Source of the DNA: a virus
Lineage: Duplodnaviria; Heunggongvirae; Uroviricota; Caudoviricetes
IMG/VR virus record: IMGVR_UViG_2734482778_000005
Location: 1 to 10,057 of that record
Strand: one strand, 5' to 3'
DNA: 10,057 nt
Shown: positions 1 through 10,057 of the stretch, piece by piece
Position numbering within the stretch: position 1 is the first letter of the stretch
Layout: each line of letters starts with the position of its first letter
Translations under genes and position numbers: made by a program
Notes under the pieces: generated by a model
The model's database searches: none
The model's input: the letters and a program-made list of their open reading frames with translations, nothing else
Told to the model about the DNA's origin: nothing

Positions 1-105
1 CCAGAAAATGTTGTCCGGCGTGCGCCACTGATCGCCCACTTCCTTCAGTTCATGGGCTGGTTTGTTCCGCAGTTCCACCAGCGCCTGGCAATATTTATTA
101 CTCAT
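1..105 (-). CDS. N-terminal 35 codons of a gene that continues beyond the window start; possible phage Dam-type DNA N6-adenine methyltransferase
   Basis: Minus-strand ATG at 105-103 overlaps the TAA stop of the upstream gene (TAATG). Reads MSNKYCQALVELRNKPAHELKEVGDQWRTPDNIFW with no stop to the window edge. Codon usage is host-like (CTG, GCG, CCG). The D-x-W-R-T-P motif near the N-terminus resembles phage Dam-family methyltransferases; this is recalled, not searched. Confidence 0.4.
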   Translation of the reverse strand, partial: MSNKYCQALVELRNKPAHELKEVGDQWRTPDNIFW

Positions 106-599
106 TAAGCCCCCACGTAATTCCCTGACAGATACCACTCATCACCCGATACAGCGCGCTTGCTGCTTTTCCGTAAACACTGCTCACGACGCGCCAGAAA
201 ATTGTTTCGTTCTGGCTGGGAGTGGCTTTCACGGAATGCCGCCATCCACACCGTTGCAGCACGACGGTATAAGCCCCTGGACTCCAGTTCTTCCGCCTGG
301 CGGGTCAGGCACAAAATCACCCGGGGATCGTTAGTGCCGACATAGAAATTGCGCACAGGTCTGGTTTCACGAACTGGTTGTGGTTCCGGCTCCTGCGCTC
401 TCTCAGTCAGGCGTGGGAAATGTCTGCGTGTATCTCCTTCACAACGGTGAGCCACACGCCCACTCTGACGTAACTTGCTTGCTGACTGCAGAACGCGCTG
501 CCGTGAGTAACCTGCAAAAGCATCCGCAATGTCTCCGGAAGTACACCCCGGATGGGCTTCAATGAATTTCTGAACGTCATTTAACAGACTCATGATCAC
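105..599 (-). CDS. Hypothetical prophage protein, 164 aa, with a C-terminal PerC-like motif (LESRGLYRRAATVW); possibly YfdN-like
   Basis: Complete ORF on the minus strand. Its ATG at 599-597 overlaps the stop of the O-like gene (ATGA). The C-terminal half carries a motif recalled from the PerC/Pch regulator family. The length equals what I recall for K-12 YfdN, but that is not verified. Confidence 0.65.
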   Translation of the reverse strand: MIMSLLNDVQKFIEAHPGCTSGDIADAFAGYSRQRVLQSASKLRQSGRVAHRCEGDTRRHFPRLTERAQEPEPQPVRETRPVRNFYVGTNDPRVILCLTRQAEELESRGLYRRAATVWMAAFRESHSQPERNNFLARREQCLRKSSKRAVSGDEWYLSGNYVGA

Positions 600-1588
600 C
601 CCCTGAATCCTGCCGGGATCTGGCTGTAGTCCACGTTGTCGTAACTGGCTTTGAAGTACGGGTCTTCACGTTTTTCTGTGTGCGTGCTGACGGACGGCGA
701 TAAGCGCAGGGAAAGCTCATCCCATTTTTCCCGCAACTTCGACGGGCTGAGCACGTTACGGCACCAGAACGGATCGCGGCTGACGCGGCTGTACATCTCG
801 CAGATTTGTTTGTGAGTACGACCATCCTGCACACACATCAGGCGAATTTCGTTTGCCCATGCTGTCCAGTTCGGTTCTTTGGGACGAACCACCTCGCCGT
901 CACATTCGGCGGCCTGCTCGTACAGGGCGATGATTTTTTTCCAGAGCCACTGTGCGCAGGTCAAATCATCCTGCGTTCCCCACTGGCGCTTTTTAGGGCT
1001 GAATACAACCGCATCAGGATGGCGAGTTAAAAACTCCTGTTCAGCCGTTTGCGTGTCCGGTTGCGAAGCGTCCGGACGAGAAGAGGTTTTATTCTCTGTA
1101 GTAATCTCTGTTGTATTCTCTGTAAGATCATTGGGCCATTTTGACCCGATGACAGCGTGTCGTTTTGAACCAATGGATCGTGTCATTTTGCGCCCATCCA
1201 TCAGGTCACTTTGACCCGATGGAGAAGTGCATTTTGACCCGATGGATTCGTTCACTTTGACCTCTTCTAAAAGCTCACTTTCATAGTTGATCGTGTAGAA
1301 GTTGGTCATGTCACGCTTCGATTTATTGAGTTGCTCGCGACGCAAAACCCCAAGTGATTTCAGGCTTGCAAATGTGCGTTTCAGAGTGGACTCTGACCAG
1401 AACGGAAACTGCTCCAGCCACTGTTCTGTCGTGTTATAAACCCAGCGAATTCCGCCATGCTCAGTGCCTGAATTCGTTTCATTCAGCCAGTAATGAAGCT
1501 GCTGCAACACAATTGCCTCATTCAGACCAATACGGCATGCAAGATCACGATTTATCACAATGGGCTGGGATGTCATTAACAGGCTCAT
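596..1588 (-). CDS. Lambdoid replication initiator (O-like), 330 aa, with the replication origin embedded in its coding sequence
   Basis: ATG at 1588 is preceded by GAGGT with a 5-nt spacer. The direct repeats at 1139-1264 fall in the middle of the ORF and encode the repeated SIGSK peptide, as iterons do in lambda O. Downstream gene is coupled by an ATGA overlap. Confidence 0.85.
   Translation of the reverse strand: MSLLMTSQPIVINRDLACRIGLNEAIVLQQLHYWLNETNSGTEHGGIRWVYNTTEQWLEQFPFWSESTLKRTFASLKSLGVLRREQLNKSKRDMTNFYTINYESELLEEVKVNESIGSKCTSPSGQSDLMDGRKMTRSIGSKRHAVIGSKWPNDLTENTTEITTENKTSSRPDASQPDTQTAEQEFLTRHPDAVVFSPKKRQWGTQDDLTCAQWLWKKIIALYEQAAECDGEVVRPKEPNWTAWANEIRLMCVQDGRTHKQICEMYSRVSRDPFWCRNVLSPSKLREKWDELSLRLSPSVSTHTEKREDPYFKASYDNVDYSQIPAGFRG
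1081..1264. repeat. Putative phage origin: six direct iterons at about 23-bp spacing (core TTTTGACCCGATGGA, starting near 1139, 1163, 1186, 1209, 1232, 1255) next to an AT-rich tract (1081-1138) carrying short TTCTCTGT repeats
   Basis: Direct reading of the sequence: four near-identical and two degenerate copies of the TTTTGACC core, phased at 23-24 bp, abutting an AT-rich stretch. This is the classic iteron plus AT-rich lambdoid ori-within-O layout. Confidence 0.65.
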
Positions 1589-1757
1589 GACCGACCTCTA
1601 TTTCCCTGAATTTACGACGAAACTGTTCGAGCGGACTGAAGCATTCATGTTCATAGCCTTCACGGAGGTAGATAACCCGTTGTGTTTCCGGCTCCCAACG
1701 AATGACTCTGACGGGCACTCCGTAGTGATCTTTGAACCAGCGGTTAACTTGTCGCAA
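1545..1757 (-). CDS. Alternative small ORF (70 aa, TTG start); mutually exclusive with most of 1598-1936
   Basis: TTG start is preceded by AAGGAGA with a 7-nt spacer. The product ([40 protein letters not shown]...) has a globular-looking composition. It overlaps the O-like start by 44 nt and overlaps the 112-aa ORF in another frame. Confidence 0.3.
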
Positions 1758-1936
1758 AGGACTGTCTCCTTCTGCCGGTTGAAATCACCCACAGCCCACT
1801 CTGCAAAGCTGTGGGTTACAATTTCCCTGTCACCTGGTACATTCACTGCATAGCAATACTCCACCTTCGCTTTTCCACCCGGTACAGGAAGCGCAATCAG
1901 TTGCGAGCGACGGTAGTGTGTTGTTAAACTGTTCAT
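1598..1936 (-). CDS. Hypothetical protein, 112 aa, between the CII-like and O-like genes
   Basis: ATG at 1936 overlaps the stop of the upstream CII-like gene (ATGA). GGAGA lies 9 nt upstream. The TAG stop at 1600-1598 sits 9 nt before the O-like ATG, inside its ribosome-binding site, which is typical operon spacing. The C-terminal half is S/T/N-rich and less protein-like. Confidence 0.45.
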
Positions 1937-2517
1937 GCGTTAGTTTCTCCACAACCAGAAGCAATCGACGCCACGACGCCCGGAGCTGCACACTCGCGGG
2001 CGTTACTCTTTTCCGGCGCACAAAAAACACGAAATAACAGTGTTAAATGCTCCTGCCACTTCGCCATTACTTGGTAGCTGTTCTCTTCGATTTGCTCACG
2101 CTCAGCCTGGTCAATAACTCCATCAGCAGTTGCCTTGCGTAAGTACTGGGAATGCTTGCCAATCCATTCTATTGACTCCATCAGCCGCTGATTAATGTCA
2201 CCATTGTCAATGTCATCAATGACCACCAGCGGCACAAACACCCCATTACTACGACGGGCTATTGCATCTGTTACATGCCTGGTACCACTGGCATCCTGTA
2301 AAACCATGGCCCACTCAAGTGGAAAAATTTGATCCCCACCGCTACGCAGTCTGTTATGCAATTGATCTTTTGCTGGGGTGATATCATCAGATTTATACAA
2401 ACCAAGAATTTCTGCTGCTTCCTCATAGCCATGAGGTAAATCAGCAATCGTTCTTCGTATTGCTGCCACCAGCCATGCTGGTTGTTTATCAACTTTCCAT
2501 TCAGGTTCTTTACCCAC
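1933..2517 (-). CDS. Phage CII-like regulatory protein (CP76/YdaT-type), 194 aa, GTG start
   Basis: GTG at 2517-2515 is preceded by GAGGA with a 7-nt spacer. It sits immediately downstream of the Cro-like gene (27-nt gap), in the cII position. The central region ([10 protein letters not shown]...[25 protein letters not shown]) resembles CII/CP76-type regulators from memory. Confidence 0.7.
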
Positions 2518-2544
2518 GGTTAATTCCTCATTTCTGTGGTGTTT

Positions 2545-2742
2545 TTATGCCGCAGCACTGTTAGTCTTTTGATATAAAGACACGTCAACTTTCAGTTTCC
2601 CGTTAGTAATTTTTTCTAACTGGTACGCTCGGCCTTCAGGAATAATCTCAGGCCACTCTGAAACAGACGGATGCTTAATACCTAGGGCTTCGGCGGTTTT
2701 ACAAACTCCGCCGAAATAATTAATCACGTCGGATTTCCGCAT
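2545..2742 (-). CDS. Cro-like small HTH regulator (YdaS/Cro family), 65 aa
   Basis: ATG at 2742 is preceded by GGGAGA with a 5-nt spacer. It is the first gene leftward of the operator cluster and divergent from the cI-like gene. The HTH-like segment is GGVCKTAEALGIKHPSVSEW. Confidence 0.8.
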   Translation of the reverse strand: MRKSDVINYFGGVCKTAEALGIKHPSVSEWPEIIPEGRAYQLEKITNGKLKVDVSLYQKTNSAAA

Positions 2743-2773
2743 TTCTGTCTCCCGTTAAATTACGTTAAGCAGA

Positions 2774-2840
2774 AATGTAGGATATCCAACATGCCAATGT
2801 CAAGAATCCTACATGGGCATGTGGTAGGATTGCCTACATG
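2774..2840. promoter_or_regulatory. OR-like operator region: three 18-bp imperfect palindromes (2775-2792, 2797-2814, 2822-2839) overlapping a leftward PR-like promoter (-35 TTGACA at 2803-2798, -10 TACATT at 2779-2774, minus strand) and the cI start
   Basis: Direct reading. The sites are ATGTAGGATATCCAACAT, ATGTCAAGAATCCTACAT and TGGTAGGATTGCCTACAT, sharing the half-site ATGT(A/T)GGAT. The promoter is TTGACA, 18-nt spacer, TACATT, aimed at the cro-like gene. Confidence 0.6.
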
Positions 2841-3491
2841 ATGAACATGAGTGATCGTATTCGCCAAAGGCGAAAAGAACTGAACCTGACACAACAAGCA
2901 CTGGCTGATTTGACTGGTGTGAACCGTGTCACGGTTACTGGATGGGAAAAGGACGACTACCAACCAAATGGAGCCAACCTTCAAGCCCTAGCCAACGCAC
3001 TTAAATGCGATCCTCTGTGGCTTGTTAGCGGAAAAGGCTCGCCTGAACCAAAGATAAATCTAAAACCTGAAATATTCGCAGTTAAAAAAGTCCCCCTCAT
3101 CTCGTGGGTTCAGGCGGGTTCATGGACAATGACGGAGCCTGGTGTCAGGAAAGAAGATGCTGAAGAGTGGGTTTATACTACCGCCCTTGTATCAGAAATG
3201 GCATTTGCACTACGGGTCCGTGGTGATTCAATGACCAATCCCCTCGGCTCACCATCGATACCAGAAGGTTCTATCGTTATCGTAGAGCCAGATATTATTG
3301 ATACAGAGTGTATTAACGGAAAAATCGTTGTTGCCCATATCAATGGTGGGCAAGAAGCGACACTCAAAAAATTTGTTGAGGACTGGCCGAACAGGTATCT
3401 CGTCCCACTAAATCCTAACTATAAAACTATTGAATGCGGTGAGAACTGCAGAATAGTTGGTCTTGTCAAACAAGTAATAATGGATTTTTGA
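2838..3491 (+). CDS. cI: cI-like prophage repressor: N-terminal XRE-type HTH plus C-terminal S24 (LexA-like) autopeptidase domain, 217 aa
   Basis: HTH segment LTQQALADLTGVNRVTVTGWE. A candidate Ala-Gly cleavage site (VQAGSW). The catalytic Ser sits in the GDSM context and a Lys in ATLKKF. The start overlaps the third operator; alternative ATGs lie at 2841 and 2847. Confidence 0.9.
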   Translation: MMNMSDRIRQRRKELNLTQQALADLTGVNRVTVTGWEKDDYQPNGANLQALANALKCDPLWLVSGKGSPEPKINLKPEIFAVKKVPLISWVQAGSWTMTEPGVRKEDAEEWVYTTALVSEMAFALRVRGDSMTNPLGSPSIPEGSIVIVEPDIIDTECINGKIVVAHINGGQEATLKKFVEDWPNRYLVPLNPNYKTIECGENCRIVGLVKQVIMDF

Positions 3492-3511
3492 CACATCTTC
3501 CTCACTATCGC

Positions 3512-3537
3512 AAAACCGGGGTATCCCCGGTTTTTTT
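3512..3537 (+). terminator. Rho-independent terminator after cI (stem AAAACCGGGG / CCCCGGTTTT, 3-nt loop, T7 tail)
   Basis: Perfect 10-bp GC-rich inverted repeat followed by TTTTTTT, 21 nt after the cI stop. The A-tract upstream makes it potentially bidirectional. Confidence 0.7.
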
Positions 3538-3553
3538 ATGAGCCTATCTTTTT

Positions 3554-3607
3554 ATGTAGGATAACCAACATAAACTCTTGACACTCACATGTTGGATATC
3601 CTACATT
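3554..3607 (+). promoter_or_regulatory. OL/PL-like region: two 18-bp operators (3554-3571, 3589-3606) bracketing a rightward promoter (-35 TTGACA at 3578-3583, -10 TACATT at 3602-3607)
   Basis: The operators ATGTAGGATAACCAACAT and ATGTTGGATATCCTACAT share the OR half-site. The promoter has the same TTGACA, 18-nt spacer, TACATT geometry as PR. Confidence 0.6.
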
Positions 3608-3765
3608 TGTTTTTAGAGTTGTGGTGAATGCGCAGGCTGATGCGCGAAAGACATTGCAGCTATTGCGGAAAAGAGCTGTTCGGCGGGGCAATTAAACGCC
3701 CGTGAGAGTCTGAAATAACCGCAAGCCGGAGATCAGCACCGGTCACCACAACAGCCACTGCTTTG

Positions 3766-3813
3766 GCGGTACCAGTTTGTACACTTGCTTCCGGCTGGTA
3801 CCGCTCTTTTTAC
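3766..3813 (+). other. Strong hairpin in the PL leader (10-bp perfect stem GCGGTACCAG / CTGGTACCGC, 19-nt loop, then TCTTTTT); possible attenuator or terminator
   Basis: Perfect inverted repeat read directly, followed by a T-rich run, about 135 nt upstream of the first early-left gene. Function is not established. Confidence 0.3.
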
Positions 3814-3948
3814 AAAACAGAGAAGAGCATCACCGGACGACGGGCTCATAACCCAATCCATCCGGGCGGCTGCCACCGCAGGTGTTCTTCTCTGTTTTGT
3901 GGAGAAACTAACCGACCTTGCAGGGTCGATATGATGAGGAGCAGCAAA

Positions 3949-4311
3949 ATGGCTAGCGAACGCAGTACTGATGTGCAGGCATTTATTGGGGAGCTGGACG
4001 GCGGCGTATTTGAAACCAAAATCGGCGCAGTTCTCAGTGAAGTCGCTTCCGGTGTGATGAACACGAAAACCAAAGGTAAGGTCTCGCTCAACCTGGAAAT
4101 CGAACCGTTTGATGAGAATCGTGTGAAAATCAAACACAAACTCTCGTATGTTCGCCCGACTAACCGCGGGAAAATTTCCGAAGAAGACACCACCGAAACG
4201 CCGATGTATGTCAATCGCGGTGGTCGCCTGACTATTCTGCAGGAAGACCAGGGACAATTACTGACTCTTGCTGGTGAACCTGACGGAAAACTCCGCGCAG
4301 CAGGTCATTAA
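3949..4311 (+). CDS. yfdP: YfdP-like prophage protein, 120 aa
   Basis: ATG at 3949 is preceded by GAGGAG with a 7-nt spacer. The ORF-track start at 3763 is a TTG with an implausible N-terminal extension. Length and position directly upstream of the YfdQ/YfdR-like genes match the CPS-53 yfdP-yfdQ-yfdR order as I recall it. Confidence 0.65.
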   Translation: MASERSTDVQAFIGELDGGVFETKIGAVLSEVASGVMNTKTKGKVSLNLEIEPFDENRVKIKHKLSYVRPTNRGKISEEDTTETPMYVNRGGRLTILQEDQGQLLTLAGEPDGKLRAAGH

Positions 4312-4376
4312 TATCGTTCTTAATTAACTGATTATTTATCTCATCACTGAATATCTTTATATAGTGAGGACTTATT

Positions 4377-5201
4377 ATGTCTCAGAACTTAGACGCAACC
4401 GCAATTAATCAAATCCATGCCCTTATTTCTGCTCAGGGTGTTAATGAAATTATCAGTAAGATTGGTGCCGATGCTGTGGCATTGCCTGAGAATTTCCGCA
4501 TTCATGATCTGGAAAAATTTAATTTAAATCGCTTCCGTTTCCGTGGTGCGCTTTCCACTGCCAGCATCGATGACTTTACCCGTTATTCTAAAGATCTTGC
4601 AGATGAAGGCACCCGCTGCTTTATCGATGCTGATAATATGCGTGCCGTCAGTGTGCTTAACCTGGGTACTATTGATGAACCAGGTCACGCAGATAACACC
4701 GCCACTCTCAAACTGAAAAAGACAGCACCGTTCTCTGCTCTGTTGTCTGTTAATGGCGAGCGTAACTCCCAGAAATCACTGGCAGAATGGATTGAAGACT
4801 GGGCCGACTACCTTGTGGGCTTTGATACTAATGGTGACACCATTCAGGCAACAAAAGCGGCTGCGGCGGTCCGTAAAATCACGATTGAAGCAAACCAGAC
4901 CGCTGATTTTGAGGATAATGACTTCAGCGGCAAACGCTCCCTGATGGAGTCTGTCGAAGCGAAGACCAAAGACATTATGCCAGTGGCATTTGAATTTAAA
5001 TGCGTTCCGTTTGAAGGCCTTAAAGAACGTCCGTTTAAATTACGCCTCAGCATTATCACTGGCGATCGTCCTGTACTGGTTCTGCGCATTATTCAGCTGG
5101 AAGCGGTGCAGGAAGAAATGGCTAACGAATTTCGTGATCTGCTTGTTGAGAAATTCAAAGACAGCAAAGTAGAAACCTTTATTGGTACTTTCACCGCCTG
5201 A
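4377..5201 (+). CDS. yfdQ: YfdQ-like protein (DUF2303 family), 274 aa
   Basis: ATG is preceded by GAGGA with a 6-nt spacer. It is a long clean ORF with host-like codon usage. The sequence and length match my recollection of CPS-53 YfdQ. Confidence 0.8.
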
Positions 5202-5213
5202 TTTCATTACTGC

Positions 5214-5235
5214 AAATGCCCCTGCGGGGGCATTT
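5214..5235 (+). terminator. Terminator-like hairpin after yfdQ (AAATGCCCC, loop TGCG, GGGGCATTT) with a weak U-tail
   Basis: Perfect 9-bp inverted repeat 13 nt after the yfdQ stop. Only three T residues follow, so it is probably a partial terminator or an RNA-stability element. Confidence 0.3.
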
Positions 5236-5329
5236 ATGGAAACGTAATTAACTCAATAATCGCCGGATGGTGAGGGCTTCCTTTTACCCGAATTCAGCGC
5301 GGTGCAGCGCATATAACGTGGAGAACAAA

Positions 5330-5866
5330 ATGTCATTTATTAAAACTTTTTCCGGGAAGCATTTTTATTATGACAGGATAAATAAAGACAACATCGATAT
5401 TAACGATATCGCGGTTTCCCTTTCAAATATCTGTCGCTTTGCCGGTCATCTTTCACACTTCTACAGCGTCGCCCAACATGCGGTGCTTTGCAGCCAGCTG
5501 GTGCCGCAGGAATTTGCTTTTGAAGCGTTAATGCATGATGCAACAGAAGCGTATTGCCAGGACATCCCCGCGCCACTGAAACGCCTTCTTCCTGACTATA
5601 AACGGATGGAAGAAAAAATAGACGCCGTAATCCGTGAGAAATACGGGTTACCCCCGGTTATGAGTACGCCCGTGAAATATGCCGATCTCATCATGCTGGC
5701 AACCGAACGCCGTGATCTCGGGCTTGATGATGGCTCTTTCTGGCCTGTACTGGAAGGCATCCCGGCAACAGAGATGTTCAACGTGATTCCACTGGCACCG
5801 GGCCATGCCTACGGGATGTTTATGGAACGCTTCAACGAGTTATCGGAATTACGCAAATGTGCATAA
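5330..5866 (+). CDS. yfdR: YfdR-like HD-domain phosphohydrolase (5'-deoxynucleotidase-type), 178 aa
   Basis: ATG at 5330 is preceded by GGAG. HD motif (ALMHDATEA) and upstream His residues are present. Length and sequence match my recollection of K-12 YfdR. The ORF-track start at 5267 is an upstream in-frame extension. Confidence 0.8.
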   Translation: MSFIKTFSGKHFYYDRINKDNIDINDIAVSLSNICRFAGHLSHFYSVAQHAVLCSQLVPQEFAFEALMHDATEAYCQDIPAPLKRLLPDYKRMEEKIDAVIREKYGLPPVMSTPVKYADLIMLATERRDLGLDDGSFWPVLEGIPATEMFNVIPLAPGHAYGMFMERFNELSELRKCA

Positions 5867-6735
5867 CTCATGTAGTTAGTTTTTCTGGCGGGAGAACATC
5901 TGCATATCTTGTTCACCTGATGGAAGAACAAAGAAAGGCTGGCAATAACGTCTGCTACATCTTTATGGATACCGGTTGCGAACATCCGCTGACATACCGC
6001 TTTATTCGGGAGGTTGTGAAGTTCTGGGGCATACCGCTAACTGTGTTGCAGGTCGATATAAATCCAGAGCTTGGGCAGCCAAATGGTTATACGGAATGGG
6101 AACCAAAGGATATTCAGACACGAATGCCGGTGCTTAAACCGTTTATGGACATGGTAAAAAAATATGGCACGCCATACATCGGCGGCGCATTCTGCACTGA
6201 CAGATTAAAACTCACCCCCTTCACAAAATACTGCGATGACCATTTCGGACGAGGGAATTACATCACATGGCTGGGTATTCGTGCAGACGAACCTCGTAGG
6301 CTGAAACCGAAATCGGGCGTCCGGTATCTTGCCGAGCTATCTGATTTTGATAAGTCGGATGTTATCCGGTGGTGGCATAAACAACCTTTTGATTTGCAAA
6401 TCCCGGAGCACCTCGGGAACTGTGTTTTCTGCATCAAAAAGTCCACGCAAAAGCTGGGGCTTGCATGTAAAGACGAACCTGGTCTGATGCGAGTTTTTAA
6501 TGAGCTGGTTACAGGTAAACACGTCCGGGATGGTCACCGAAAGACAAATAAAGACGTTATGTACCGTGGTCATCTGAGCCTTGACGGGATTGCCAGAATG
6601 TATGCCGACAGCGACTACAGAAATTTGTATCAGGCGATGGTGCAAGCCAGGCGATTCGATACCGGCTCGTGTTCAGGGTCATGTGAAATCTGGGGTGATC
6701 AATTGGAGTTGAAATTCGAAGAGGTGGTGGCATGA
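5857..6735 (+). CDS. PAPS-reductase-like PP-loop ATP-pyrophosphatase family protein, 292 aa
   Basis: N-terminal PP-loop SFSGGRTS (SGGxxS type). The start overlaps the yfdR stop by 10 nt and the stop overlaps the next start (ATGA). It is a long ORF with several Cys residues near the C-terminus. Confidence 0.8.
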   Translation: MCITHVVSFSGGRTSAYLVHLMEEQRKAGNNVCYIFMDTGCEHPLTYRFIREVVKFWGIPLTVLQVDINPELGQPNGYTEWEPKDIQTRMPVLKPFMDMVKKYGTPYIGGAFCTDRLKLTPFTKYCDDHFGRGNYITWLGIRADEPRRLKPKSGVRYLAELSDFDKSDVIRWWHKQPFDLQIPEHLGNCVFCIKKSTQKLGLACKDEPGLMRVFNELVTGKHVRDGHRKTNKDVMYRGHLSLDGIARMYADSDYRNLYQAMVQARRFDTGSCSGSCEIWGDQLELKFEEVVA

Positions 6736-7205
6736 CAACCAAAATTAACTATCAGGCACTGCGTGAGGCGGCAGAAGCAATAAAAATAGTAGCCACACCA
6801 CAAAAATTGCTGGCATTTCGTATGAAAGTCACACCGCAGGTTGTGCTGGCGCTGCTGGATGAGCTGGAAGCAGCAGAGAAGCGAAACGCTGAATTACAAA
6901 GCGAGAATGCATACATCCGCAACCGGTACAAAGAACTGGACCTATTAATCGGGAAAAACATTCTGGTCATGCAGGCTGCCATTATCGAATGGCAGGCAAC
7001 TGGCGACGCTAAGAGCGGACTGGCATGGATTTATAACACACTGTTTGGCCCTGGCGAATTACCGGACGAATCTGAGAAAGATGCTCAGGCCTACTTTAAT
7101 CGCAAATATGCACCGATTGACGAAAAGCTTATGGCGCTTCACAAGTGGTTTTGGGAACAAAGTGAAGCCGAGCGCGCCGCTGGCATTCGCATCAAAGGAG
7201 AGTGA
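6732..7205 (+). CDS. Ea22-like (ead/Ea22 family) phage early protein, 157 aa
   Basis: ATGA overlap with the upstream gene; GAGGTG ribosome-binding site. The N-terminal YQALREAAEA and coiled-coil-like central region resemble Ea22-family prophage proteins from memory. Confidence 0.6.
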   Translation: MTTKINYQALREAAEAIKIVATPQKLLAFRMKVTPQVVLALLDELEAAEKRNAELQSENAYIRNRYKELDLLIGKNILVMQAAIIEWQATGDAKSGLAWIYNTLFGPGELPDESEKDAQAYFNRKYAPIDEKLMALHKWFWEQSEAERAAGIRIKGE

Positions 7206-7206
7206 T

Positions 7207-7470
7207 ATGGCAACTTTGACAAAAAAGGAACAGGCATGGTTGAGCGAATTACAGAACGTTCTTGATCGCTGCCCGTCACCGAAAAAAATTGGTTTTTACA
7301 CCATTGGCGATAAAAACATTTACCTGTATGACCTACGCCGCATGGATGAAATCATGGAGGCTCTTGATAATCGTTCGTCAATGGATTGGTGTGTTGCTGT
7401 CCATGATATGAATGCCGGATTTGAAGAAAAGATTTTGTTCCCCTCGTCAGTTGAAAGCACAGCGGGTTAA
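7207..7470 (+). CDS. Hypothetical phage protein, 87 aa
   Basis: ATG at 7207 is preceded by AGGAG with an 8-nt spacer and starts 1 nt after the upstream TGA. The ORF-track start at 7045 is an in-frame extension overlapping the upstream gene. Confidence 0.6.
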   Translation: MATLTKKEQAWLSELQNVLDRCPSPKKIGFYTIGDKNIYLYDLRRMDEIMEALDNRSSMDWCVAVHDMNAGFEEKILFPSSVESTAG

Positions 7471-7480
7471 GGACTAACAC

Positions 7481-7945
7481 ATGACAACGTTCACCGACAA
7501 AGAACTGATTAAAGAAATCAAAGAGCGCATAGGCAGCCTGCCAGAATTAATCGAAGGCATGGAAGTTTCCATTGATGTAAGCACTTGTGATGCTGATTTA
7601 GGTAATCGCTATTTCGGCACCGTCACCGAGGCGTTAGAACTTGATACAGCCAAGAATGGTTACATCCTCCTGGTTCAGGACGCAGAGCCAAACTTCGATG
7701 TAAATGGCAACTCTCCGGGAACTCCGGATAGTTGGATAAGCTGTAGTGATCGAATGCCTGAAAAGGGCCAGAACGTGCTTATTTCGGTGAATTTCGATAG
7801 CTCTCTGGTTGAACCGCTAATATGCTCCGCACGCTATACCGGAAGCACCTTTCGGCGCGGAGATGCAACGATTAAGCCGGGTAATGGTATTGAGCAAGCA
7901 ACTCACTGGATGCCGCTACCGGAACCGCCGCAGGAGGTGAAGTGA
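7481..7945 (+). CDS. DUF551-family phage protein, 154 aa
   Basis: AAGGA with a 7-nt spacer. The C-terminal segment (WISCSDRMPEKGQNVLI ... HWMPLPEPP) matches the DUF551 pattern as I recall it. Confidence 0.7.
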   Translation: MTTFTDKELIKEIKERIGSLPELIEGMEVSIDVSTCDADLGNRYFGTVTEALELDTAKNGYILLVQDAEPNFDVNGNSPGTPDSWISCSDRMPEKGQNVLISVNFDSSLVEPLICSARYTGSTFRRGDATIKPGNGIEQATHWMPLPEPPQEVK

Positions 7946-8517
7946 TGAACAACTTAATGATCGACCTTGAGACGATGGGGAAAAATAAGGATGCACCGAT
8001 CGTTTCCATTGGCGCGGTGTTCTTCACTCCAGAAACCGGAGACATCGGACAAGAATTCTATACGGTTGTTAGCCTGGAAAGTGCTATGGGGCAAGGAGCT
8101 ACACCTGACGGCGATACCATCCTGTGGTGGTTGAAACAAAGCCCTGAAGCACGAGCTGCAATCTGTATTGATGATACTTTGTCGATCAGCGATGCTCTCT
8201 CAGAACTAAATCATTTCATTAACCGGCACGCAGCCAATACGAAATATTTAAAAGTCTGGGGTAACGGGGCCACCTTCGACAACGTAATTTTACGTGGAGC
8301 TTATGAGCGAGCAGGACAAATCTGCCCGTGGGCATACTGGAATGACCACGATGTACGCACGATCGTTACGCTTGGGCGTTCCATCGGATTCGACCCCAAA
8401 ATGGACATCCCTTTCGATGGCGAACGGCACAACGCCCTAGCCGATGCCCGTCATCAGGCAAAATATGTTTCCGCTATCTGGCAGAAATTAATTCCTGCCA
8501 CCAGCACAGAATTATGA
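7945..8517 (+). CDS. DEDD-type (DnaQ-like) 3'-5' exonuclease, 190 aa
   Basis: Exo I motif IDLETMG, Exo II region WGNGATFDNVIL and Exo III HNALADARH are in the expected order. ATG at 7945 has AGGAGG with a 7-nt spacer; the GTG at 7942 in the ORF track is too close to that site. It overlaps the upstream stop (TGATG). Confidence 0.8.
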   Translation: MNNLMIDLETMGKNKDAPIVSIGAVFFTPETGDIGQEFYTVVSLESAMGQGATPDGDTILWWLKQSPEARAAICIDDTLSISDALSELNHFINRHAANTKYLKVWGNGATFDNVILRGAYERAGQICPWAYWNDHDVRTIVTLGRSIGFDPKMDIPFDGERHNALADARHQAKYVSAIWQKLIPATSTEL

Positions 8518-8553
8518 TTTTCCCGGGTGCAGCCGGTTTTGATGGAGAAAATT

Positions 8554-8826
8554 ATGAATACCTTGTTTTTACTGATGGCTGAATTCAATACCCCTAACAT
8601 TGAACTCTCAGCAGTTAGCCAAAAGTACTTTGGCATGAGTCCAGCCACGGCAGAAGCAAAAGCAAACGCTTGTAAGTTGCCCGTTCCAACATATCGCATC
8701 GGCACATCACAAAAAGCAAAACGTTGCATCAATATTCAGGATCTTGCGGAATACATAGACAAAAGGCGAGAAGAAGGGCGTGCTGAGTGGGAAAGGGTCA
8801 GAACCCATAAACAAAGGCTCATTTAA
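8554..8826 (+). CDS. PrtN-family / excisionase-like small DNA-binding protein, 90 aa
   Basis: ATG at 8554 is preceded by GGAGA. The product (MNTLFLLMAEFNTPNIELSAVSQKYFGMSPATAEAKANACKLPVPTYR...) resembles PrtN/Xis-like proteins from memory. It is the last gene of the rightward operon. Confidence 0.6.
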   Translation: MNTLFLLMAEFNTPNIELSAVSQKYFGMSPATAEAKANACKLPVPTYRIGTSQKAKRCINIQDLAEYIDKRREEGRAEWERVRTHKQRLI

Positions 8827-8834
8827 ATAGAATA

Positions 8835-8866
8835 TGAATAAACCCATCCAAAGATGGGTTTATTCA
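8835..8866. terminator. Perfect 14-bp inverted repeat (TGAATAAACCCATC, loop CAAA, GATGGGTTTATTCA) between convergent genes; candidate bidirectional terminator
   Basis: Read directly. The right arm contains the stop codon of the minus-strand gene. A T-rich run follows on the minus-strand transcript, so it probably works better for the leftward cassette. Confidence 0.5.
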
Positions 8867-9321
8867 TAATGTTGAAGAGCAGCGAGTATCAGTTTTTTAT
8901 GCCGTTTAACCATAGTTTTAGATATCTCAACTGCACATCGAACTTGTCTCATACAATGATCTGTAATGCGACCTTTTAGCACGTCACCATATTGGATGGC
9001 TATTTTCTCTTTAATAATTTCAAGATCGAAAGCAGCATGAGCCTCAATGCAATTAACAAATGAGTCCCATTTAAGAAAATCATGGTCCTCTCTATTAATT
9101 TCGACCTGACAAGCCATAAGATCATTGTTTCTCTTAATAAATTCATTTATATCTGAATTTATTAGAAGAACTAAAAGAGGTTCACAGCAAACAACCACCA
9201 TATATTTTACTTTAGGTGGGGTCGTAAAATCACAATGAAGATACAATACATCACCGGGTGATATACCTCTTTCACGACTAAAATTAGCCTTAAAATCAGG
9301 AGGGAAACAATCACCCAGCAT
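8860..9321 (-). CDS. Hypothetical protein, 153 aa, no family recognised; candidate toxin or effector partner of the upstream Panacea-domain gene
   Basis: ATG at 9321-9319 lies 5 nt after the TGA of the Panacea-domain gene. The ORF track extends to a TTG at 9330, which would give an ATGA-type overlap. AT-rich codon usage differs from the rest of the window. No known motif identified by eye. Confidence 0.65.
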   Translation of the reverse strand: MLGDCFPPDFKANFSRERGISPGDVLYLHCDFTTPPKVKYMVVVCCEPLLVLLINSDINEFIKRNNDLMACQVEINREDHDFLKWDSFVNCIEAHAAFDLEIIKEKIAIQYGDVLKGRITDHCMRQVRCAVEISKTMVKRHKKLILAALQHYE

Positions 9322-9326
9322 AAGTA

Positions 9327-9908
9327 TCAATATCCGTTCTTCAGATAATCCAGTATTAATTTGCTATTTTTTAGCTGTGCAACTATCGATTCCAAAGACA
9401 TCTCACCATTGTGATCTGCCTGTTCCCATGCCGCGTCATGGCTCATGGTTCTGATAGCTTCAAAGGACATGTTTCCAAGCATCGCGATAGACTTATCAAT
9501 ACACTCTAAATCTGAGTCACTAAAAAAGTCTTCATCAGCTTCACGGCTCGGCACAATCGTCATACCTGATACAGAAAATGCTTTTCGCACAGAATCGACA
9601 TCACAACCATTAGGAATGTAACGTCCATCTCCACGAGCAATTTTTATAATATCGTATGTGTTGCTTGCTACAGGCCCATCCTTCATAGCGTTATAGTGAT
9701 CGCCCGTTATGAGGCGTCCAAAACTTTCAAGGTGAAACCTGTCAGCATAATAAAGAATTTTTCCGACATGATAGATATCTGGGATCGGTGCTTTAGAGGC
9801 GACGTACAGAATGGCCTCTAAAGCCTTTTCTGAATCAAACCTTACATTTAGCATCAATACACCCTTCATCCAAACAACATCGTCAAGCTCTGGCAAATGC
9901 AACCGCAT
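9327..9908 (-). CDS. Panacea (DUF4065) domain protein, SocA/GepA-like, 193 aa (possibly 175 aa from an internal ATG at 9854)
   Basis: N-terminal region (EAILYVASKAP-IPDIYHVGKILYYADRFHLESFGRLITGDHYNAMKDGPV) matches the Panacea/COG3600 signature (KLxKLLYYA ... GPV). The C-terminal part (LSDSDLECIDKSIAMLGNMSFEAIRTMSHDAAWEQA) matches the second conserved block. No ribosome-binding site precedes the ATG at 9908; AAGGG precedes the ATG at 9854. Confidence 0.7.
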   Translation of the reverse strand: MRLHLPELDDVVWMKGVLMLNVRFDSEKALEAILYVASKAPIPDIYHVGKILYYADRFHLESFGRLITGDHYNAMKDGPVASNTYDIIKIARGDGRYIPNGCDVDSVRKAFSVSGMTIVPSREADEDFFSDSDLECIDKSIAMLGNMSFEAIRTMSHDAAWEQADHNGEMSLESIVAQLKNSKLILDYLKNGY

Positions 9909-9920
9909 CCGCCTTCTACA

Positions 9921-9950
9921 ATCTTAAAGTCTTCACCTACGCTAGGTCAA
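9921..9950 (-). promoter_or_regulatory. Candidate sigma70 promoter for the leftward two-gene cassette (-35 TTGACC at 9950-9945, 18-nt spacer, -10 TAAGAT at 9926-9921)
   Basis: Hexamers read on the minus strand upstream of the Panacea-domain gene. The -10 matches the consensus at 4 of 6 positions. Weak call. Confidence 0.25.
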
Positions 9951-10057
9951 TTGAAGTGATGAGCAAATGATGCTTTCTAAGAAGAACAGGTTCCCAATAG
10001 GCTCCCACAAAGTGTATAACTACTTGTTTTTCAAAAACGGTACATCCTATCGAGCAT

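Follow-up and report, generated by a model that had tools for sequence, protein, structure and literature searches.

The gene at positions 5857 to 6735 of the DNA analysed here, a 10,057-nucleotide (nt) stretch from a virus of the Caudoviricetes (IMG/VR record IMGVR_UViG_2734482778_000005, positions 1 to 10,057; called the window below), is by its sequence an orthologue of ninC of phage lambda. We propose, tentatively and with slightly less than even confidence in the whole chain of events, that its product is an ATP-dependent sulfurtransferase that is fed by the host cysteine desulfurase IscS, acts on phage DNA and serves anti-restriction. The protein appears to be a stand-alone PP-loop enzyme of the 3′-phosphoadenosine 5′-phosphosulfate (PAPS)-reductase-like branch, nearest in kind to SspD and DndC, the enzymes of DNA phosphorothioation. 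The window itself is an Escherichia coli lambdoid prophage of the yfdP-yfdQ-yfdR type, and the gene is described as follows.

5857..6735, + strand: NinC-family gene, 292 amino acids (aa), PP-loop PAPS-reductase-like (open reading frame [ORF] call, identity to lambda NinC, PHROG 424)

The window protein is 78% identical to lambda NinC over 290 aa, that is, over its full length, and it matches PHROG 424 from aa 5 to 291 (E 4.5e-93). Several Shiga toxin 2 (Stx2) phage records, at ~91% nucleotide identity, annotate the gene as NinC. Proteins 99% identical over the full length (E 3e-203) are found in clusters with hundreds of members, and 430 of the 5426 complete E. coli genomes (~8%) carry ninC at ≥80% nucleotide identity, which argues that the ORF is a real gene and not a chance one. 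When 1.84 billion cluster representatives were searched with the profile, 370 clusters reached E ≤1e-30 and 3108 reached E ≤1e-3; the family is large and mostly phage-borne. It is a known family, biochemically unsolved, and what is new here is one further member. Among the 462 places that match ninC in the E. coli collection, 72 are on plasmids, suggesting carriage by phage-plasmids.

The product shows the features of the PP-loop ATP pyrophosphatase superfamily, namely, the SGGxxS/T loop and a Rossmann-like alpha/beta/alpha core. Its AlphaFold2 model has a mean predicted local distance difference test (pLDDT) score of 85.9, with residues 273-292 below 50 and predicted to be disordered. Conservation was assessed on an alignment of 50 homologues, 28-78% identical to the window protein, in which the following motifs stand out.

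5878..5901, + strand: PP-loop SFSGGRTS, aa 8-15, the ATP pyrophosphatase/adenylation motif (S10 and S15 invariant)
6190..6210, + strand: FCTDRLK, aa 112-118 (C113 and K118 invariant)
6274..6300, + strand: GIRADEPRR, aa 140-148 (G140, R142, D144, E145 and R148 invariant)
6415..6441, + strand: GNCVFCIKK, aa 187-195 (G187, N188, C189-x-x-C192 and K195 invariant)
6670..6687, + strand: CSGSCE, aa 272-277, in the tail predicted from pLDDT to be disordered (C272 and C276 invariant)

E42, F49 and L180 are likewise invariant, G11 and G12 of the PP-loop are kept in 47-49 of the 50 homologues, and C126 is kept only in the enterobacterial members (10/50). The window protein has every family-invariant residue and deviates solely at G274, where 41 of the 50 carry E; it is an intact, ordinary member of the family. 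K118 lines up with the Lys of the CysH motif NKVEP, and the loop from R142 to R148 is, in the hhalign alignment, the counterpart of the CysH substrate loop GLRREQ. Three core cysteines together with a CxxxC on a mobile tail make the pattern that would be expected of a sulfur-handling PP-loop enzyme. C113 and C189-x-x-C192 would probably form an iron-sulfur (Fe-S) or sulfur-binding site, C113 serving as an Fe-S or persulfide cysteine, and C272 and C276 may carry a persulfide, by analogy with the mobile C-terminal Cys of the (P)APS reductases (APS, adenosine 5′-phosphosulfate). Among models of defence systems, SspD gave the best match to the protein (E 1.5e-15), followed by BrxP and DndC (E 9e-4).

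Many representatives of the NinC family, P0125, P0128, P0132 and P0139 among them, have 330-360 aa, and the profile matches them in two stretches split near position 150. This implies a lineage-specific insertion of ~50-60 aa, placed after the Arg loop and before the GNCxxC motif.

The link to DNA comes from gene context and gene fusions. We compared 49 non-redundant loci drawn from a genome-contig scan and clustered all ORFs within ~4 kb; the flank scan covered the recurrent gene clusters and several individual neighbours. A viral-contig scan gave relatives of ≥93% identity only and offered no context diversity. NinC has no constant neighbour in these loci, its flanks holding the usual early genes of lambdoid phages (SSB, NinG, DnaB, O/P-like, DUF968, DUF1367 and DUF3268), besides methyltransferases and proteins with no Pfam match. 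A Dam-type methyltransferase alone recurs as an associate: in 18 of the 49 loci, ninC is fused to a Dam-family gene or has one ≤4 kb away on the same strand, and these loci include an archaeal metagenome-assembled genome (MAG) whose NinC is 32% identical. In the closest matching prophage, that of E. coli S115, Dam is encoded by a separate gene, which lies on the opposite early arm and a little beyond the window.

The fusions are varied. A C5-methyltransferase (Dcm)-NinC-D12 protein of 1099 aa occurs in Mixta and a C5-methyltransferase (Dcm)-NinC-Dam protein of 1031 aa in Sodalis; NinC-Dam fusions are found in Providencia, in an Erwiniaceae genome and in Vibrio phages, and both Dam-NinC and NinC-D12 arrangements were seen among metagenomic representatives. 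At the Erwiniaceae locus, a C5 methylase gene directly follows the NinC-Dam fusion. Of the computational evidence, the independent fusions, in both orders and with three methyltransferase families, speak most strongly for an action of NinC on DNA in phage self-modification.

One such fusion has been part of an experiment. Protein p0018 of Vibrio phage 44E38.1 (P0096 in our set) has a NinC domain that is 55% identical to the window protein over 96% of the query, with the same motifs. It was described as the PAPS-Dam protein of a two-gene anti-Dnd block (Piel et al., Nat Microbiol 2022; bioRxiv 10.1101/2021.05.05.442762), and when p0018 and p0019 were moved into a Dnd-sensitive sister phage, the latter reached 1e11 plaque-forming units (PFU)/ml on the Dnd+ host (bioRxiv 10.1101/2021.05.05.442762). 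Together, the methyltransferase fusions and this experiment support DNA as the substrate. A known anti-Dnd protein, JSS1_004, was also considered as a relative and set aside, being a kinase unrelated to NinC.

Should NinC act on RNA instead, as a thiolase or modifier of tRNA or other RNA like TtuA, NcsA, MnmA, ThiI or TilS, it could change the tRNAs of the host or the phage, for instance, to confer resistance to anticodon nucleases or to tune translation. The similarity to such enzymes extends over just the PP-loop core of ~155-165 residues, for which an APS reductase scores as well, and a Pfam scan detected no THUMP, PUA or TilS C-terminal domain. Moreover, every second domain of the fusions that Pfam can name is a DNA methyltransferase (the extensions of P0124 and P0129 have no Pfam match), and a homologue sits in the anti-Dnd block. 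An RNA enzyme thus seems distinctly unlikely to us.

A word on the scan itself is needed. Lambda DNA, at 99.6-100% identity and often on contigs of ~48.4 kb, is present in GTDB representative assemblies of unrelated organisms (loci L084-L094, L098, L109, L110, L130, L145, L146 and L150 of the genome-contig scan). The nominal hosts include Pseudomonas, Kitasatospora, Oceanobacillus, Bradyrhizobium, Shewanella, Enterococcus and a Segatella MAG, and the source is almost certainly laboratory contamination.

The source of sulfur is suggested by a sister family. Searched against the sequences of the PDB, the broad NinC profile matched best to chain C of entry 21fy, a protein named PptA (E 2e-6), which shares with NinC the motifs C-T-x-x-L-K, G-x-x-x-E-E-x-R and N-C-x-x-C-x-K. 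A fragment search recovered PptA as a 250-aa hypothetical protein of Vibrio phage vB_VhaP_VH-5 (Autographiviridae), encoded just 3′ of the RNA polymerase gene. In a 27-member PptA alignment, C92 and C173-x-x-C176 are invariant, C237-x3-C241 is near-invariant, and the NNC-x-x-C-x-K motif is invariant as well. In hhalign, the profile of NinC can be aligned with that of PptA along its whole length, over 236 columns at 99.2% probability (E 3e-19). The cysteines are in register, C113 with C92, C189-C192 with C173-C176 and C272-C276 with C237-C241, so that the CxxxC of the NinC tail falls on the ECSxxC of PptA.

When the PDB was queried with IscS, the exact E. coli sequence was found in two entries only, 1p3w and 21fy. 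Because it occurs in the same entry as PptA, 21fy joins the phage protein and the host cysteine desulfurase in one complex, two chains of each, and it is the closest structural handle on the NinC family. Since the sister family is found in complex with IscS, a sulfur-relay role for NinC is well supported by analogy. There is precedent among PP-loop enzymes: DndC, a PAPS-reductase homologue with an SGGKDS loop, has [4Fe-4S]-dependent ATP pyrophosphatase activity, and it enters an IscS-DndC-DndD-DndE complex in E. coli, where IscS replaces DndA (PMC6435447).

The PptA structure also fits another explanation, in which NinC mainly binds IscS and diverts or blocks the flow of sulfur, with no modification of phage DNA. 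Such a protein could starve host DndC/SspD modification, tRNA thiolation or Fe-S assembly, or it could retune the frameshifting of lambdoid phages that depends on tRNA thiolation. Two points favour this explanation. Competition among IscS partners is known to affect the growth of lambda by way of tRNA thiolation and of the gpG/gpGT frameshift, and the flank scan of the 49 loci found no DNA-recognition partner encoded near NinC. A pure binder would nevertheless have no need of the PP-loop, of K118 and the R142-R148 loop or of the five cysteines, all of which are invariant down to 28% identity, and the recurrent methyltransferase fusions speak for DNA. We therefore regard a mere modulator of IscS as unlikely.

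The "PAPS reductase" name raises a third possibility. Virome studies routinely list relatives of NinC as PAPS reductases, auxiliary metabolic genes of sulfur assimilation (e.g., bioRxiv 10.64898/2026.02.18.706556), and on that account the protein would be a true reductase of PAPS or APS that raises the host's sulfate assimilation in infected cells. The Pfam profile PAPS_reduct scores 37.1 bits (cut-off 22.5) over aa 5-72 only, corresponding to profile positions 2-66 of 175. The CysH equivalog model of NCBIfam, NF002537, reached 20.3 bits against a cut-off of 154. By hhalign, the family profile aligned with E. coli CysH over residues 5-145 only (88% probability), and the C-terminal catalytic motif ECG[LI]H has no counterpart in the window protein, whose tail reads C-S-G-S-C-E. 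An ordinary CysH was rejected on the equivalog score, the extent of the alignment and the missing ECGLH; the window protein is not one. Besides, the gene lies in a phage early operon without cys genes, E. coli already owns cysH, and the DNA methyltransferase fusions would make no metabolic sense. A role in host sulfate assimilation is thus highly improbable.

These results bear on an earlier note on this DNA, which had been made from the letters alone. A closest match to the ordinary sulfate-assimilation CysH, which the note would have taken as a refutation, did not emerge, given the NF002537 score and an alignment that ends at residue 145. Its suggestion of a nucleic-acid modification, possibly for anti-restriction, is backed by the methyltransferase fusions and by the 55%-identical NinC-Dam protein of the anti-Dnd block. 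It had not recognised the gene as lambda ninC, and it had stated that the substrate cannot be inferred from sequence, but the conserved cysteine signature and the IscS complex of the sister family narrow the choice. The functional instinct of the note was broadly right, for reasons other than its own.

The proposed IscS-fed modification of phage DNA would run as follows. ninC would be transcribed as part of the early-left operon during replication of the phage genome, and NinC would dock on IscS and take up sulfane sulfur, the likely acceptors being the invariant C113, C189-x-x-C192 and the tail C272-x3-C276. The enzyme would adenylate a site on phage DNA with ATP at the SGGRTS loop, and sulfur would then displace the adenosine monophosphate leaving group to give a phosphorothioate-like or thio-base mark. 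This mark, alone or with adenine or cytosine methylation by the phage, could shield the genome from host restriction, including phosphorothioate-dependent systems of the Dnd type. We infer from the comparisons above the binding of IscS by NinC, the Fe-S cluster, the DNA substrate, the chemistry and the anti-restriction benefit. A stronger version, in which NinC-type proteins are minimal, single-polypeptide writers of DNA sulfur marks that need host IscS only, without DndDE or SspBC, seems doubtful.

Several observations weigh against this proposal. Neither DndD/DndE, SspB/SspC nor a desulfurase gene was found beside NinC among the flanking genes scanned in the 49 loci, and to our knowledge, no phosphorothioation system works without a partner that scans DNA. 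The similarity to the reference enzymes is partial: the SspD match spans aa 5-152, or profile positions 2-125 of 277, and thus the N-terminal half only, and the similarity to CysH is likewise confined to the N-terminal half. PptA is ~20% identical to NinC, because of which we take it as a sister family rather than as part of the same family. A literature search for PptA or PDB 21fy found no describing paper, and the IscS-PptA complex could equally mean inhibition of IscS and not sulfur uptake. In the anti-Dnd experiment, two genes were moved, one of them with a Dam domain, so the NinC domain was not isolated. Proximity to Dam genes, unlike fusion, is weak evidence, since these genes are common cargo of lambdoid nin regions. 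Lastly, lambda ninC is dispensable in the laboratory, and we know of no report of sulfur modification of lambda DNA. Our search of the literature on lambda NinC gave essentiality and interaction screens only, none of which reported a function.

The genes on either side of ninC overlap it.

5267..5866 (probable start 5330), + strand: yfdR-like gene for an HD-domain 5′-deoxynucleotidase (PHROG 318, Pfam, RefSeq), a neighbour and not a demonstrated partner
6732..7205, + strand: Ead/Ea22-like gene (Pfam Ead_Ea22, E 1.4e-10), its ATG overlapping the NinC stop

For the ORF ahead of ninC, the profile matches are PHROG 318, "deoxyribonucleoside 5′ monophosphate phosphatase" (E 1.9e-111), and the Pfam family YfbR-like (E 3.4e-5, below the family threshold); in near-identical prophages, RefSeq labels the gene yfdR, 5′-deoxynucleotidase. 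ninC starts with the ATG at 5857, within the 3′ end of this ORF, whose TAA stop is at 5864-5866, giving an overlap of 10 nt. At its other end, the TGA stop of ninC (6733-6735) and the ATG of the Ea22-like gene at 6732 share the letters ATGA, an overlap of 4 nt. A Shine-Dalgarno-like run, GAGGTGG, lies 5′ of the Ea22-like ATG, and just a weak GGA precedes that of NinC. The overlaps suggest that translation of the NinC ORF may be coupled to that of both neighbours. Reading of the sequence bore out all the facts given in the earlier note, the SFSGGRTS loop and both overlaps included.

That note had taken the HD-domain nucleotidase next to ninC as the hint of a common pathway, a point that did not survive the comparison of loci. 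In such a pathway, the two enzymes, YfdR and NinC, would work one after the other on free nucleotides, either making a modified precursor or removing one. The 10-nt overlap and the annotation of YfdR as a 5′-deoxynucleotidase speak for it. The two genes are however adjacent in only two of the 49 loci (the window and L118), and lambda NinC has no YfdR neighbour. In the CPS-53 prophage of E. coli K-12, yfdP-yfdQ-yfdR is followed by yfdS, which starts at the same ATG in the 3′ end of yfdR; it was examined as a decayed ninC and rejected, being unrelated (E 3.1). An alignment of the junction DNA (window 5857-5866 against L155:11512-11521) shows that the conserved yfdR tail AAATGYGCATRA embeds the downstream start codon. 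Because the identical junction carries the unrelated yfdS in K-12, the overlap is not a sign of a shared pathway, and the yfdR 3′ junction is best read as a mosaic recombination slot that accepts different cargo. Stx2 phages have the layout yfdQ-gene-NinC, and in Ss-VASD the middle gene encodes a 147-aa hypothetical protein that has no detectable similarity to YfdR by all-against-all BLASTP and shares no cluster with it. We reject a functional pairing of NinC with YfdR on the rarity of the adjacency and on the shared junction with swapped cargo, and a joint action on the nucleotide pool is scarcely credible.

Expression of ninC from an early-left operon was considered in light of the wider layout of the window.

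2838-3491, + strand, the same as ninC: cI-like repressor with helix-turn-helix and S24 peptidase domains (domain matches)
3578..3607, + strand: promoter-like site TTGACA-18-TACATT, 3′ of the cI-like repressor (consensus match only)
8833..8868: strong hairpin of 16 pairs, a near-perfect palindrome, scored as a terminator on the − strand

The promoter-like site is a candidate start of the left early operon containing NinC. No strong + strand terminator was seen between it and the hairpin, which lies between the end of the + strand early-left genes and a convergent pair of genes. The repressor on the same strand, the promoter-like site and the lack of a convincing + strand terminator before the hairpin make placement of ninC in the early-left operon a reasonable reading.

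Other genes of the window were noted in passing. Within the ninC operon, positions 7481-8517 encode a DUF551 protein and an Rv2179c-like 3′-5′ exoribonuclease (Pfam E 2.5e-75); these genes, together with that for YfdQ (DUF2303), recur with ninC in Stx2 phages. On the − strand, at 8860-9908, the convergent pair comprises a 193-aa antitoxin with a SocA/Panacea domain (Pfam E 5e-20) and a 156-aa partner, for which neither Pfam nor PADLOC gave a match, and the two overlap by 4 nt. They are likely a PanA-type toxin-antitoxin pair at the end of the prophage, and in a related genome the pair adjoins a dusA-type remnant.

The gene itself is common and already catalogued, and its interest is in an old question and in the annotation of viromes. 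Few lambda genes still lack a function, and NinC is among them. We argue that the "PAPS reductase" sulfur-assimilation label is wrong for the NinC family and that the database name is misleading; in its place we offer a testable hypothesis, IscS-fed sulfur modification of phage DNA for anti-restriction, in particular against Dnd. If it is true, a widespread annotation would be corrected, Shiga-toxin phages would carry a compact counter-defence enzyme, and a one-gene tool for sulfur modification of DNA would be at hand. If the minimal single-polypeptide version were true as well, lambda and many lambdoid and Stx prophages would carry a sulfur mark that was missed in sixty years of work.

Compared with known systems, NinC resembles the APS and PAPS reductases of the CysH type in the core fold, in the Lys and Arg substrate loops and in a Cys on a flexible C-terminal tail, and the Fe-S-containing APS reductases have a C-x-x-C, as NinC does. 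It differs from them in its unaligned C-terminal half, in lacking ECGLH, in scoring far below the equivalog cut-off and in having no cys context. With SspD and DndC it has in common a PAPS-reductase-like PP-loop with SGGxxS and conserved cysteines, and DndC forms complexes with IscS; the match is nevertheless limited to the N-terminal half, and NinC has 292 aa versus ~470-480 for the DndC models. p0018 of 44E38.1 has a C-terminal Dam domain and was tested with a second gene, whereas the window protein is the bare domain. PptA is shorter (~250 aa) and, at ~20% identity, has a degenerate P-loop, SCGAPS, and an extra invariant cysteine, C149. It is nonetheless homologous to NinC end to end and has the cysteine signature, and both are phage early or DNA-metabolism genes. 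Lambda NinC (orf-290, lambdap64) is encoded in the nin region on the pR side, between ninB and ninD, whereas the window and Stx2 copies are on the pL side; the window gene follows yfdQ and yfdR there, and its first four codons derive from the yfdR junction. The lambda and window proteins nevertheless share all the invariant motifs, both are delayed-early and both are annotated as "PAPS reductase."

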